Source of the DNA: a virus
Reading direction: 5' to 3' (one strand)
DNA length: 19,157 nucleotides
Virus record (IMG/VR): IMGVR_UViG_3300045988_018683
Both the position numbers and the translations under genes were made by a program. A model generated the notes under the pieces. That model saw only the letters and a program-made list of their open reading frames with translations. It made no database searches and had not been told where the DNA came from. Shown piece after piece: positions 1 through 19,157 of the stretch; within the stretch, counting starts at the first letter, position 1; each line of letters begins with the position of its first letter.

Positions 1-111
1 GTGGGAGGGGTGTGGGTTTGTGTGAAGATTTTCCCTTGTGGTTTTTTTTATTTGTGTATTATTTTTTTTTGTTCTGTGACTTCGTTGTCGTTTTGTTTTG
101 TTTATGTCTCT

Positions 112-140
112 ATTATATTTTTTTTACGCTTGCATGTCAA
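112..140 (-). promoter_or_regulatory. Outward-facing consensus sigma70-type promoter in the left ITR (TTGACA-17 nt-TATAAT)
   Basis: On the - strand, TTGACA lies at 140-135 and TATAAT at 117-112, with a 17-nt spacer. It points toward genome end 1. The mirror copy is on the + strand at 19018-19046. Confidence 0.6.
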
Positions 141-149
141 GTTTTTTTA

Positions 150-164
150 TTTTCGGGCGTGTCG
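150..164. repeat. 15-mer TTTTCGGGCGTGTCG, repeated at 330-344 (both copies inside the ITR)
   Basis: Exact 15-nt direct repeat, copies 180 bp apart. The second copy covers the -35 region of the inward ITR promoter. Confidence 0.8.
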
Positions 165-174
165 TTTTTTTTTA

Positions 175-252
175 TTGACGTTGTGTCAATGGTTGTATGT
201 GCAACAATCTATGTTGACGTTGTGTCAATGGTTGTATATGCAACAATGTGTG
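175..252. repeat. Two tandem 39-bp direct repeats inside the ITR (mirror copy 18906-18983)
   Basis: TTGACGTTGTGTCAATGGTTGTAT(G/A)TGCAACAAT occurs at 175-213 and 214-252. Each unit carries the small dyads TTGAC-N5-GTCAA and GTTG-N6-CAAC. Confidence 0.9.
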
Positions 253-261
253 TCCTGCTAG

Positions 262-283
262 GTTACGGTTACGTAACCGTAAC
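262..283. promoter_or_regulatory. Perfect 22-bp palindrome in the ITR, candidate operator (mirror copy 18875-18896)
   Basis: GTTACGGTTAC|GTAACCGTAAC is fully self-complementary. It is built from two GGTTAC units followed by two GTAAC(C) units. Confidence 0.85.
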
Positions 284-356
284 TTACTGCTCGTCCTGTG
301 GTTGTTTTTTATTGTTTTGCTGTGTTTTGTTTTCGGGCGTGTCGCCGTTTTGTTTG

Positions 357-365
357 TGTTATAGT
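357..365 (+). promoter_or_regulatory. Inward-facing extended -10 promoter in the left ITR (TGTTATAGT); mirror copy on the - strand at 18793-18801
   Basis: A TGn plus TATAGT element lies about 30 nt upstream of the SD AAGGAAAGGA and the ATG at the inner ITR edge. Confidence 0.5.
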
Positions 366-396
366 GTAGTTATCAAGTTCAAGGAAAGGAAATAAA

Positions 397-483
397 ATGA
401 ACATACTAGGGGTTGATGTTTATAACGATAATGCAATACCGGTTGATTTGGTTGTCGTTAAACGTGCTGAAAGAGGAGAATAA
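397..483 (+). CDS. Hypothetical 28-aa early micro-protein (MNILGVDVYNDNAIPVDLVVVKRAERGE)
   Basis: Its ATG is the last part of the ITR and is preceded by the ITR-encoded SD AAGGAAAGGA. Amino-acid composition is balanced. It is too short for the ORF track. Confidence 0.25.
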   Translation: MNILGVDVYNDNAIPVDLVVVKRAERGE

Positions 484-485
484 AT

Positions 486-554
486 ATGTTTGCTTCTGTC
501 CTTATTATTTGCGCGTGTGTTGTTGGTGTTGTTGTCGTTTTTGGTATGATATAG
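486..554 (+). CDS. Hypothetical 22-aa hydrophobic peptide (MFASVLIICACVVGVVVVFGMI)
   Basis: A strong SD AGAGGAG lies 7 nt upstream of ATG 486. The product is a single hydrophobic stretch. Confidence 0.25.
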   Translation: MFASVLIICACVVGVVVVFGMI

Positions 555-1404: not shown

Positions 1405-1915
1405 GCGCGGTGATGACAGGCGGCCTATCTACCGTATGCGTGACTTCGATGATTCCATCATGGAAAGCAAGCGTATTGCCTGCGCCACGAAAGGCCATAA
1501 GCGTGAGTTGAACTTGAAGCGTTTCGACATGGGTGTTGGTGATTTTGAAACGTGCTGCCGTGCAGTGAACATGCTATGCGAACTATGGCGTGACGCACCT
1601 AGCGCATGGTTTACGCAAGCGGTGGTTACGGTGTCGCAGATTTGCGGGAGCATGTGTATCGGCGATGGACTCGCCGCCGCATTGTCTCGCACGTATGATG
1701 TGGAATATTTGGACGGTTCCGTCAATCCCCCTAATTTGATTGCATGGTGCGCCGTCTGTGCCGTCAAGGGCGGGACTTCGTATGACTGTTGTACGATTTT
1801 TGACAACCCGCAGGCGCGAAACCTGATTATCGCCGTATTTAAAAATTTTGACAGACTGGACACGAAGCGATATAATGACAATGAATTGCAAAAAATCTTA
1901 CTGCAAGGGAGGTAA
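1397..1915 (+). CDS. Cys-rich hypothetical early protein (172 aa, 10 Cys)
   Basis: Track ORF 1382-1915. ATG 1397 lies 8 nt after GAGGA. Cys clusters are CC, CxxxC, CxxC and CC. Confidence 0.6.
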   Translation: MFRRGDDRRPIYRMRDFDDSIMESKRIACATKGHKRELNLKRFDMGVGDFETCCRAVNMLCELWRDAPSAWFTQAVVTVSQICGSMCIGDGLAAALSRTYDVEYLDGSVNPPNLIAWCAVCAVKGGTSYDCCTIFDNPQARNLIIAVFKNFDRLDTKRYNDNELQKILLQGR

Positions 1916-1919
1916 AAAA

Positions 1920-2234
1920 TTGGCTAGAACCAAAACCGATATTTTCCGCACGCGAGTCTATGCCGTGCTCAAGGGGATGGAATTGGTTGACGGTGATTTT
2001 ATGGAAGCTGAGCATGTTATCGATGGGCGTTTAAAAGACGAACGTGCGTATTCGGTTCGTGCGAAAAGACTGTTTCCGAATTTTATTCCGCGGTCCATCA
2101 ACATTTTTTCGCAAAAAGTTTCCATGGATGAGGAAACTTTTTACAAGTATGCGACTTTCGAGAAACCTCAAGAATGGAAACCGGAAGAGCATACAAAACG
2201 ACACGCCGAAGTTGAAAATAACGAAGACGTGTGA
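1920..2234 (+). CDS. Putative phi29 p6-like double-stranded DNA-binding (histone-like) protein, 104 aa
   Basis: TTG 1920 lies 7 nt after the strong SD AGGGAGG and just after the upstream stop. Size, acidic C-terminal tail (EVENNEDV), position immediately upstream of the SSB, and patches such as MELVDGDF and ETFYKYATF resemble my recollection of phi29 p6. Confidence 0.4.
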   Translation: MARTKTDIFRTRVYAVLKGMELVDGDFMEAEHVIDGRLKDERAYSVRAKRLFPNFIPRSINIFSQKVSMDEETFYKYATFEKPQEWKPEEHTKRHAEVENNEDV

Positions 2235-16226: not shown

Positions 16227-17294
16227 ATGACATTGCAGACGCTCGACGAGAGCGATTATTACGACTTGCACAATCTGTTGACGCGAAACGCCCCGTGGAA
16301 CTTCATAATCGGCGCACGCGGCCTAGGCAAGACATTTGCCGCGAAACGGTACGGTATAAAAGAGTACATCAAGCATGGCTATGAGTTCATCTATCTACGC
16401 CGTACGGACGTGGAACAGCATCGCAAGGAAACGTTTTTCAAGGATATCCAAGAGTACTTTCCATCATACGAGTTTCGAGTCAATGGAGAAAAAGGGCAAT
16501 TACATAAGACGTCATGGGATGAAAAGGACTGGCGGACATGCTGTTACTTCGTCGCCCTCTCACAGGCGGGAGGGTTGAAGTCAGTCGCCTATCCTAAAGT
16601 ACACTTGATTATCTTCGACGAGATTTTCCCCGACAACTTACGGTTCTTAAGCAATGAGGTGAACTCGTTCAGTGAATTTTATAACACGGTGGACAGGTGG
16701 CAGGACAGGACGAAAGTATTGTTTTTGTCTAACGCGGTGCAGAAAGCTAACCCGTATTTTGCAAAATACCGGCTGGACATTGGCGCACAGCAAGCCAACC
16801 AACAACAATACAAACTCTACTGTAGTGGGTTCATATGTCTCGAATTGGCTGACTATGGCGGTTTCTCGGCAAAAGTCGCCAAATCAAAGTTCGGCAGATT
16901 CTTAGAACGGTACGACGAAGACTACGCCGACTACGCAATCCGCAACAAATTCCGCGACGAGTCTGACACATTGCTGGCACCCATACCACCAGACGGCGAA
17001 CTATCCTACATCTTGGACACAACAGACTATGCGCGTTTCGGGATATGGATATCCGTGTCCGAACGTGACGGGCATGTTTCACAATATGTTTCACGACGCA
17101 TTCCAAAGGACAACAATCGCCCCGTCTATACGCTAGACCCGAACCACGTTAACGAAAAGACATGGTACGTCAAAAAGTCGGATGATATCATACGACGACT
17201 CACTACCGGCTACCGACTTGGCAAAATACGATTCGACGACTCGCAAATCAAAGCAGACTTTGGTTTAATAATAGGAGAATTGCTAGGAAAATAG
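16227..17294 (+). CDS. DNA packaging (encapsidation) ATPase, phi29 gp16-like
   Basis: SD AGGAGG. WNFIIGARGLGKTFA (Walker A), EFIYLRR, VHLIIFDE (Walker B) and LSNAVQKANPYF align with gp16 LNFVIGARGIGKSYA, QFIYVRR, IVFDE and LSNAVSVVNPYF. Confidence 0.9.
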   Translation: MTLQTLDESDYYDLHNLLTRNAPWNFIIGARGLGKTFAAKRYGIKEYIKHGYEFIYLRRTDVEQHRKETFFKDIQEYFPSYEFRVNGEKGQLHKTSWDEKDWRTCCYFVALSQAGGLKSVAYPKVHLIIFDEIFPDNLRFLSNEVNSFSEFYNTVDRWQDRTKVLFLSNAVQKANPYFAKYRLDIGAQQANQQQYKLYCSGFICLELADYGGFSAKVAKSKFGRFLERYDEDYADYAIRNKFRDESDTLLAPIPPDGELSYILDTTDYARFGIWISVSERDGHVSQYVSRRIPKDNNRPVYTLDPNHVNEKTWYVKKSDDIIRRLTTGYRLGKIRFDDSQIKADFGLIIGELLGK

Positions 17295-18509: not shown

Positions 18510-18515
18510 CATAAG

Positions 18516-18548
18516 GAAAGCCCCTAGGTTGATGTCCTAGGGGCTTTC
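18516..18548. terminator. Bidirectional hairpin terminator between the convergent endolysin and right-end genes
   Basis: A 13-bp perfect stem, GAAAGCCCCTAGG-ttgatgt-CCTAGGGGCTTTC, followed by TTGTTAT on the + strand. Confidence 0.7.
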
Positions 18549-18558
18549 TTGTTATCTA

Positions 18559-18759
18559 TCATGCTTTCTCGAACGCTTCAATAAAATCAGCGGACGGAAA
18601 AGAATCACAATCCTCATACTCCTCAATAGTCATATTATTGACCAACGCCACATGATGCAGATTTTCGACAATCACATCAATATCAAAATCGGTTAGTTGT
18701 TGGTCGCTGTTCAAAATATAATCCTCGGCGTAATCCTTGATGATGCTGTTGTTAATCAT
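18559..18759 (-). CDS. Highly acidic 66-aa early protein read inward from the right ITR
   Basis: The real start is the ATG at 18759-18757, preceded by the ITR-encoded SD AAGGAAAGGA. The 195-aa track ORF is an in-frame run-on into the ITR. The protein has 9 Asp, 7 Glu, 2 Lys and no Arg. Confidence 0.65.
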   Translation of the reverse strand: MINNSIIKDYAEDYILNSDQQLTDFDIDVIVENLHHVALVNNMTIEEYEDCDSFPSADFIEAFEKA

Positions 18760-19157
18760 TTTATTTTTCCTTTCCTTGAACTTGATAACTACACTATAAC
18801 ACAAACAAAACGGCGACACGCCCGAAAACAAAACACAGCAAAACAATAAAAAACAACCACAGGACGAGCAGTAAGTTACGGTTACGTAACCGTAACCTAG
18901 CAGGACACACATTGTTGCATATACAACCATTGACACAACGTCAACATAGATTGTTGCACATACAACCATTGACACAACGTCAATAAAAAAAAACGACACG
19001 CCCGAAAATAAAAAAACTTGACATGCAAGCGTAAAAAAAATATAATAGAGACATAAACAAAACAAAACGACAACGAAGTCACAGAACAAAAAAAAATAAT
19101 ACACAAATAAAAAAAACCACAAGGGAAAATCTTCACACAAACCCACACCCCTCCCAC
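18756..19157. repeat. Right inverted terminal repeat (ITR)
   Basis: Reverse complement of 1-400 with two extra A residues next to the inner end (GGAAAAATAAAATGA versus GGAAATAAAATGA). Confidence 0.95.
19018..19046 (+). promoter_or_regulatory. Outward-facing consensus sigma70-type promoter in the right ITR
   Basis: TTGACA at 19018-19023, a 17-nt spacer, TATAAT at 19041-19046. It points toward the right genome end, about 105 nt away. Confidence 0.6.

Follow-up and report, generated by a model that had tools for sequence, protein, structure and literature searches.

Predicted outward-facing promoters in the terminal repeats of a phi29-like Bifidobacterium phage and a possible role at the genome ends

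The genome, its ends and its terminal repeats

The DNA analysed here (hereafter the window) comprises 19,157 bp and is the complete linear genome of a phi29-like Bifidobacterium podophage. Among its products are a protein-priming family B DNA polymerase (PF03175; DNA_pol_B_2), a phi29-type SSB (PF17427), and a Gp16-type packaging ATPase (PF05894, Podovirus_Gp16, E = 4e-45), which, together with the linear genome bounded by inverted terminal repeats (ITRs), identify it as a phi29-like protein-primed podophage. A 370-aa ORF upstream of the polymerase gene is the putative terminal protein, for which profile searches returned no family match. Nearly all genes read from left to right, and one 66-aa gene is directed inward from the right ITR. 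The closest cultured relatives are the Bifidobacterium podophages BP1 (~79% identity, 72% of the genome) and BD811P1-3, from which we infer Bifidobacterium as the host genus. When the window was compared by megablast with 50,697 phage records, only Bifidobacterium phages and one faecal contig matched.

The two ITRs are 397 bp long and 99% identical. Position 1 is a genuine physical end of the genome, as indicated by an adaptor junction in the BP1 record and by the ends of independently assembled contigs. The homologous GTGGGAGG of BP1 directly adjoins an Illumina adaptor (...CTCTTCCGATCT) in that record, and the independent contigs begin at GTGGGAGG or a few bases inside it; two relatives (L097 and L055) carry 2-8 additional bases ahead of it. 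The comparison establishes where the genome really ends and reveals that the public BP1 reference record is mis-assembled, with adaptor sequence included. The BD811P1-3 records were unusable for the ITR comparison since they lack the ends, retaining only 0-55 nt of the ITR.

Each ITR contains two promoters arranged back-to-back, one reading outward to the terminus and the other inward to the early genes (Table 1). In the window, the outward -35 and inward -10 elements are ~220 bp apart. ITRs of the BP1 type lack the region corresponding to 175-300, including the 39-bp tandem repeats, which places their divergent promoters ~58 bp apart. The distance from the outward promoter to the inward one is therefore variable among the relatives, while its distance to the genome end is fixed. 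Box 1 lies at approximately -49 to -59 relative to the predicted outward start. The mirror copy of the inward promoter drives the 66-aa gene at 18759-18559 (-), and its TGnTAnnnT signature is kept in the relatives (TGTTATGAT, TGTTATTAT, TGGTATGAT, and TGGTATAGT).

The base composition and duplex stability of the ITR are uneven. The G+C content is 33-39%, and 80% of the + strand of 1-174 is G+T, which would fit the mutational bias expected of the strand displaced in protein-primed replication. The terminal 16 bp form the most stable duplex of the ITR, with a nearest-neighbour dG of -24.1 kcal/mol vs. an ITR mean of -19.2 kcal/mol. The outward -10 element falls into the least stable 16-bp window (starting at 111; dG -13.0 kcal/mol). 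The terminal core of 78 bp is presumed to be the replication origin by analogy with the phi29 family.

Table 1. Features of the terminal repeats and of the replication-operon promoter. Conservation is the mean column conservation among relatives.
Feature	Position	Strand	Remarks
Left ITR	1-397	.	inverted repeat; position 1 is the physical end
Terminal core, presumed protein-primed origin	1-78	.	conservation 0.96; 28 distinct rows of a 29-row alignment
Predicted non-coding run-off transcript, ~105 nt	1-105	-	start predicted near 105
Substitution-rich segment	79-111		indel-free in 27/28 relatives
Part of this segment	79-100		conservation 0.80
Start-site region	101-111		conservation 0.77
Outward promoter as drawn on the ITR map	105-140	-	
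Outward promoter, left copy, TTGACA-N17-TATAAT	112-140	-	sequence scan
-10 hexamer TATAAT, left copy	112-117	-	sequence scan; conservation 0.96
17-nt spacer, left copy	118-134	-	A8 tract adjoins the -10
A8 half of the spacer, next to the -10			conservation 0.99
9 nt of the spacer adjoining the -35			conservation 0.66
-35 hexamer TTGACA, left copy	135-140	-	sequence scan; conservation 0.95
A-rich tract immediately upstream of the -35 (A/T tract of the ITR)	141-153	-	conservation 0.91
Box 1, CGGGCGTGTCG, candidate regulator site	154-164	+	conservation 0.94
Two 39-bp tandem repeats with operator-like palindromes TTGACgttgtGTCAA and GTTGtatgtgCAAC	175-252	.	between the divergent promoters
Perfect 22-bp palindrome GTTACGGTTACGTAACCGTAAC	262-283	.	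kept in long-type ITRs of relatives
Box 2, CGGGCGTGTCG	334-344	+	overlaps the -35 position of the inward early promoter
Inward early promoter, extended -10 TGtTATAGT	357-365	+	followed by RBS AAGGAAAGGA and ATG at 398
Replication-operon promoter, second class of perfect TTGACA-17-TATAAT	1848-1876	+	precedes the replication genes
Right ITR, mirror copy	18761-19157	.	inverted repeat
Outward promoter, right copy	19018-19046	+	sequence scan; -35 at 19018-19023, -10 at 19041-19046
Predicted right-end run-off transcript	19053-19157	+	identical in sequence to the left one; placed by symmetry

The outward promoter and its conservation

An earlier reading of the window from its sequence only (the sequence-only reading) had placed a perfect TTGACA-17-TATAAT promoter in each ITR, firing outward to a terminus about 105 nt away. 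Both copies were found exactly there, inside the 397-bp ITRs and facing the nearest end, and both match the consensus at 12/12 positions with a spacer of 17 nt. Transcription starting ~7 nt past the -10 element, close to position 105, would give a run-off product of ~105 nt, in agreement with that reading. The A-rich tract upstream of the -35 element resembles an UP element and may act as one. By chance, ~0.01 perfect TTGACA-17-TATAAT matches are expected per window, and three matches were reached in 0/200 shuffles.

There are indeed three matches, contrary to the earlier claim that the ITR promoter is the only perfect consensus in the window. Downstream of the third lie an RBS (AAGGGAGGT) and, at 1920, the TTG start codon of the first gene of the replication module. 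The operon behind it comprises a 104-aa gene and the genes for SSB, the putative terminal protein, and the DNA polymerase. In BP1 and in 57 of the 80 IMG/VR relatives, distant ones among them, this promoter matches the consensus perfectly. Across the clade, perfect consensus promoters fall into exactly two classes, namely the outward ITR promoter and the replication-operon promoter. The 104-aa protein (1920-2234) is placed like gene 6 of phi29 and has no Pfam or PHROG match, and the profile search detected no p6 homologue in the window.

We retrieved 80 relatives from IMG/VR via the polymerase gene, among which 28, in addition to BP1 and the window, reach the promoter site. Column conservation was computed from a 29-row alignment of the site containing 28 distinct rows, and perfect hexamers were counted over the 28 genomes covering the site, including the window. 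Of these 28, 19 have two perfect hexamers, and the promoter is weakened or lost in the other nine. Among additional contigs from ENA, it is perfect in 5/7, two of which (19.6-19.7 kb) carry it at both ends. The same outward promoter is present in BP1, a phage of B. pseudocatenulatum U19. The spacer is 17 nt long in 28 of the 29 aligned rows. The -35 element reads TTGACA in 25/29 rows and TTAACA in three, and is deleted in one (L036), which lost it through a 24-nt deletion. The -10 element is TATAAT in 23 of 28 sequences, with TACAAT in two genomes and CATAAT in another, and L008 (TATAAC) and L068 (TCTAAC) lack its critical final T. The spacer sequences themselves vary widely (TGCAAGCGT, AACTGGCGT, GGTTAGGAT, and GGTGAACGT). 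The footprint is therefore that of a promoter, in which the hexamers and their spacing are kept and changes accumulate in the upstream half of the spacer and around the start site (Table 1). Even though 79-111 is rich in substitutions, the entire stretch 1-111 is free of indels in 27/28 relatives, and the distance from the promoter to the genome end is thus fixed.

The vegetative consensus of B. breve is TTGACA/TATAAT with a 17-bp optimum, and expression is highest for the B. breve promoters that approach it most closely (PMC5746004). The outward promoter matches this consensus of the presumed host genus. Because of its promoter-like footprint, its agreement with the host-genus consensus, and the identical consensus ahead of the replication operon, it is very probably a real vegetative (sigma-A/sigma-70 type) promoter, as the sequence-only reading had supposed. 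The case for a real and strong promoter appears as good as sequence alone can make it. The promoter also appears to be maintained by selection in both ITR copies, and it is a candidate for a very strong and compact Bifidobacterium promoter. The comparison shows that it is favoured but not indispensable, since it is impaired in natural variants and since distant relatives do without it. Two more distant relatives with ITRs of their own (L077 and L078) have no outward promoter at up to 2-3 mismatches, and neither do BadAztec1 and Av-1.

The run-off RNA and readings of the promoter

The predicted run-off RNA consists of A60 C29 U9 G7 (85% A+C), and its minimum free energy (MFE) is only -5.7 kcal/mol for 105 nt. 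The earlier description of an A/C-rich RNA with almost no G, no ATG, and little structure is thus accurate. It had also excluded a coding role, which holds beyond ATG because GTG, TTG, and CTG are absent as well, ruling out a hidden small ORF. No terminator-like site was found between the predicted start and the end (1-105). The G+T-rich + strand of the ITR explains the A/C-rich transcript without selection on the RNA. The RNA lacks conservation over its 5' 27 nt, and the conserved 3' part falls on the presumed origin.

Searches for a function of the RNA gave negative results. Scanning the whole window against Rfam at E <= 10 gave no relevant match, the phi29 control scoring 145 bits, so that the run-off RNA does not match the packaging RNA (pRNA) covariance model (RF00044) even at this threshold. 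A stable multi-helix pRNA fold with a three-way junction and interlocking loops is incompatible with the MFE and the A+C content given above. As for an antisense regulator, the best duplex with the phage mRNAs reaches -39.1 kcal/mol, which 32 of 40 dinucleotide shuffles equalled or bettered, and this role was rejected.

How probable, then, are explanations other than a role of transcription at the origin? A chance match in A/T-rich non-coding DNA is practically negligible: the low G+C content of the ITR raises the odds of TATAAT-like strings, but the expected number of matches is far below one, the promoter is perfect in most of ~35 diverged relatives while neighbouring bases change, and it recurs in two other phage lineages. 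The comparative data effectively refute it. A functional RNA, made from both ITRs and acting in trans as a pRNA counterpart or as a C-rich, G-poor decoy for Rho or another RNA-binding protein, seems improbable to us. The phi29 pRNA likewise comes from the last outward unit before the end, the window encodes a Gp16-type ATPase, which in phi29 depends on pRNA, and Av-1 has an annotated putative packaging RNA that faces its right end. Furthermore, the ITR transcript of asccphi28 is significantly structured (z = -3.27), and 29 C vs. 7 G in 105 unstructured nucleotides would be typical of Rho-loading sites. These points are set against the composition and weak folding of the RNA, the missing Rfam pRNA match, pairing with the phage mRNAs no better than that of shuffled versions, the unconserved 5' part together with a conserved part that coincides with the presumed replication origin, and the Cp-1 counterpart, which is not significantly structured (z = -0.89).

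The outward promoter might instead be a partner of the divergent inward early promoter, supplying negative supercoiling near a free end, serving as an RNA polymerase sink, or forming a switch with proteins bound to the boxes and palindromes. An A-tract next to a perfect consensus makes for very tight binding of RNA polymerase, the back-to-back layout is common to the window and the BP1-type ITRs, and Cp-1 has the same layout with ~45 bp between the -35 elements. Conserved boxes and operator-like palindromes also lie between the two promoters. However, a short untranslated transcript would experience little rotational drag and generate little supercoiling, and the gap between the promoters varies from ~58 to ~220 bp while the distance to the end is fixed, which points to the end rather than the inward promoter as the reference point. 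We consider such a partnership unlikely. A similarly low probability applies to a DNA-level origin architecture with incidental transcription, in which phased T-tracts would nucleate a p6-like bending protein and TATTATA-T8 would be a melting or bending element. In this view, one ITR-binding protein would recognise both TGTCAA, as a half-site, and the TTGAC-N5-GTCAA palindromes. T-runs occupy 118-125, 142-148, and 165-173 at intervals of 23.5-24 bp, and the repeat of the phi29 p6 complex measures 24 bp (PMC4974454). TGTCAA occurs three times per ITR, and L078 retains TGTCAA, the T-run, and the box without the -10 element. A unit similar to the -10/T8 one (repeat family D1, 82%) is present at 42-69, and the spacer's A8 part shows more conservation than its role as a spacer would demand. 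This architecture, however, leaves unexplained both the exact host-consensus hexamers at exactly 17 nt around a variable spacer and the perfect outward promoters in the unrelated ITRs of Cp-1-like phages and asccphi28, and TGTCAA has no genome-wide enrichment.

The reading we prefer, tentatively and at somewhat less than an even chance with the promoter call included, is that a genuine host-polymerase promoter directs transcription that crosses the origin and acts in cis, so that the end would be opened or cleared. The vegetative RNA polymerase of the host would start ~105 nt from the end and run off the terminus. Its template would be the strand bearing the 5' terminal protein, as expected for phi29-type replication, so that the polymerase would meet a capped end. 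Upon entering the G+C-rich terminal duplex, it would melt it, and the non-template strand would be extruded in single-stranded form as the 3'-ended template for the complex of terminal protein and DNA polymerase. The assignment of the non-template strand as the replication template follows from the sequence geometry and the protein-priming mechanism. The same passage of the polymerase could sweep off end-bound proteins, and protein-primed initiation would be helped at both origins. The act of transcription would matter, not its product, since the RNA is unstructured, belongs to no Rfam family, has no antisense target, and is unconserved in its 5' quarter, and since its conserved part coincides with the presumed origin.

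We favour origin opening because the end duplex is unusually stable, phi29 needs p6 at this step, and no p6 homologue was detected here. The stability profile of the ITR, with its maximum at the terminus and its minimum around the -10 element, supports it, as does the recurrence of perfect outward promoters in unrelated ITRs (Cp-1, Cp-7, and SOCP; asccphi28). Several considerations stand against origin opening. The promoter is missing or impaired in L036, L008, L068, and the three relatives with TTAACA, and the more distant L077, L078, BadAztec1, and Av-1 have ITRs without it. Moreover, phi29 replication in vitro is not known to need transcription, and an RNA polymerase moving outward would meet the forks from that end head-on. 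In addition, the conserved, regularly spaced T-runs and the recurrent TGTCAA could serve DNA-level roles.

Comparison with known systems

The sequence-only reading had implied that such promoters are without precedent among phi29-like ITRs, which turned out to be incorrect. Outward ITR promoters are found in Cp-1, Cp-7, SOCP, and asccphi28, and promoter A1 of phi29 fires at its left end. The kind of promoter described here is already annotated in the Cp-1 group and asccphi28, and the Bifidobacterium clade is a further case. The Cp-1 record (NC_001825) annotates a -35 (172-177) and a -10 element (150-155) on the - strand of its 236-bp ITR, mirrored at the right end, and the sequence is a perfect TTGACA-16-TATAAT. 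Cp-7 (LK392619, annotated) and SOCP have the same site. As in the window, the perfect hexamers lie on the terminus-directed strand inside the ITR and hence at both ends, and the outward promoter of Cp-1 diverges from inward early promoters (222-250 and 316-344), the inward early promoter of the window likewise residing in the same ITR. The run-off product of the Cp-1 group would be ~143 nt long and, like that of the window, has no annotated terminator or gene; the Cp-1 RNA shares the lack of significant structure. Unlike in the window, the spacer is 16 rather than 17 nt, the distance to the end is 143 instead of 105 nt, the Cp-1 RNA has no A/C bias, and the hosts are Firmicutes (Streptococcus phages). 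The Cp-1 record gives mapped starts for the inward promoters and none for the outward promoter.

In the Lactococcus phage asccphi28 (NC_010363), "putative promoter P1" within the 577-bp ITR is a perfect TTGACA-17-TATAAT reading outward. In contrast to the window, a putative terminator T1 is annotated 23-75 nt from the end, and the predicted transcript of ~300-345 nt is balanced in composition as well as significantly structured. The window thus shares with the Cp-1 group and asccphi28 a terminus-directed consensus promoter inside the ITR at both ends. The megablast search revealed no sequence similarity that would indicate common descent with their ITRs; the likeness appears to be one of architecture, without demonstrable homology between ITRs that look unrelated. 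Literature searches found no stated function for the outward promoters of Cp-1 or asccphi28, the original papers on these phages being outside their scope. The outward promoter, at up to 2-3 mismatches, is absent from BadAztec1, Av-1, 44AHJD, Reje, Tillums, and LE1-1, and judging from these scans it is a lineage-specific and patchy feature rather than a general phi29-like trait.

Promoter A1 of phi29 (328-356, -) fires at the left end and yields the pRNA (Rfam match 201-318, -), and early leftward transcripts of phi29 run off the genome end (PMC11476376). Like the promoter in the window, A1 belongs to the last outward unit before the left end, has a non-coding product, and occurs in the same phage family; the window in turn resembles the pRNA unit in having an outward non-coding unit beside the end of a phage with a Gp16-type ATPase. 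The phi29 ITR, however, is only 6 bp long, so that the A1 unit is present at one end only, and pRNA is a highly structured RNA of 120-174 nt, unlike the almost unstructured RNA of the window, which fails the covariance model. Whether phi29-like phages outside Bacillus produce a packaging RNA from the same position can be answered for the Bifidobacterium clade as apparently not.

Protein-primed origin opening is understood only for phi29, with protein p6, and for adenovirus, with host factors. The phi29 genome ends are unwound by the p6 nucleoprotein complex, which nucleates close to them with a repeat length of 24 bp (PMC4974454). If transcription opens the ends of long-ITR protein-primed phages in general, an RNA polymerase run into the capped end would replace or supplement such a p6-like unwinding protein, and the unstructured A/C-rich RNA would be the clearest case of an irrelevant product. 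Outside protein priming, transcriptional activation of origins is known from lambda ori, by transcription from pR, and from the primary origin promoters of T7. To our knowledge, there is no experimental link between transcription and protein-primed initiation. The lambda and T7 origins and the phi29 p6 complex share with our reading only the logic that something opens the origin, which makes them functional analogies. A general transcription-driven opening or clearing, with a maximal-strength promoter through each origin evolved repeatedly in at least three lineages (the Bifidobacterium clade, the Cp-1 group, and asccphi28), is a more doubtful proposition than the role proposed for the window, but not a far-fetched one. 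A conserved end-aimed promoter at a fixed distance, seen by now in three unrelated ITR families, suggests a simple alternative in which host RNA polymerase would open or clear the ends of these genomes.

Candidate regulatory sites within the inverted terminal repeats

The inverted terminal repeats (ITRs) carry several short elements around their divergent promoters. A box, (TTTT)CGG(G)CGTGTCG, repeatedly adjoins extended -10 promoters (TGnTAnnnT) in both orientations and at varying distances, and even BadAztec1, a very distantly related Bifidobacterium phage (polymerase identity of 32%), has it in its ITR. The box may be bound by a regulator, either one of the host or a conserved one of the phages. 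Two 39-bp tandem repeats and a perfect 22-bp palindrome lie between the outward and inward promoters. They are found in long-type ITRs and are missing from BP1-type ITRs. The palindromes within the 39-bp repeats, as well as the 22-bp palindrome, look like operators.

Features of the genome ends and the replication operon (window coordinates unless a relative is named)
Feature	Position	Strand	Remarks
T-runs of 7-9 nt	42-173		centres 45.5, 66, 121.5, 145, 169
Box	154-164; 334-344		mirrored at 18994-19004 and 18814-18824
Box copy	2199-2208		inverted and shorter
Box copy, BadAztec1	about 176-189
Two 39-bp tandem repeats	175-252		palindromes TTGACgttgtGTCAA and GTTGtatgtgCAAC in each
Perfect 22-bp palindrome	262-283		GTTACGGTTACGTAACCGTAAC; after the 39-bp repeats
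28-aa ORF	398-484	+	first gene, left end
22-aa hydrophobic peptide	486-554	+	after the 28-aa ORF
TTGACA-17-TATAAT	1848-1876	+	third perfect consensus match in the window
RBS; TTG start	1906-1914; 1920	+	downstream of promoter 1848-1876
104-aa protein gene	1920-2234	+	immediately upstream of SSB
Stem-loop, 15-bp stem	18514-18550		strong; between convergent late (+) genes and right-end early (-) gene
66-aa protein gene	18559-18759	-	first gene, right end; very acidic
'Packaging RNA', Av-1	16295-16402	+	as annotated; reads toward right end

First genes and relatives with altered ends

Identical inward promoters and ribosome-binding sites (RBS) stand at both ends, but the first genes differ. Neither the 66-aa protein of the right end nor the 28-aa ORF and the 22-aa peptide of the left end gave a family match. 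The stem-loop downstream of the right-end gene is conserved in BP1 and is probably a bidirectional terminator.

One relative (L036) has lost the -35 element through a 24-nt deletion between two T-runs (about 100-130), leaving ACGACA-18-TATAAT. In another (L078, 1-330), the left end carries three tandem copies of a unit that is rich in G and T and about 110 nt long; this relative retains TGTCAA, a T-run and the box and has no -10 element.

The public BP1 record (PQ571273.1) is mis-assembled at both ends. Its first 290 nt or so (1-291) are foreign or rearranged and end in an Illumina adaptor, to which the genuine terminus, GTGGGAGG, is joined at 292; on the right, the record lacks roughly the last 88 nt before the terminus. 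The ITRs are almost wholly missing from the records of the cultured Bifidobacterium phages BD811P1-3. The 'packaging RNA' annotated in the Av-1 record is antisense to ORFs B and C and gave no Rfam match to pRNA, the phi29 packaging RNA, at E <= 1.

The replication operon and the terminal DNA

The perfect promoter at 1848-1876 lies within the 3' end of the ORF at 1382-1915 and is predicted to drive the genes of the 104-aa protein, SSB, a putative terminal protein and the polymerase. Of the 80 IMG/VR relatives, 57 keep its consensus perfect, including some at only 65-75% polymerase identity, and so does BP1. The 104-aa protein had no match in Pfam or PHROG. We found no support for the 'DNA methyltransferase' label on its BP1 homologue. 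The gene occupies the same place, next to SSB, as phi29 gene 6, which encodes p6.

The terminal DNA itself shows an extreme strand asymmetry, with G+T reaching 80% on the + strand of 1-174. Strong skews of G over C and T over A continue to approximately position 900, which would fit biased deamination of the strand that is displaced at each end, but the asymmetry is unusually strong. The centres of the T-runs are spaced by 20.5, 55.5, 23.5 and 24 bp, recalling the 24-bp periodicity of the nucleoprotein complex that p6 forms at the phi29 genome ends.
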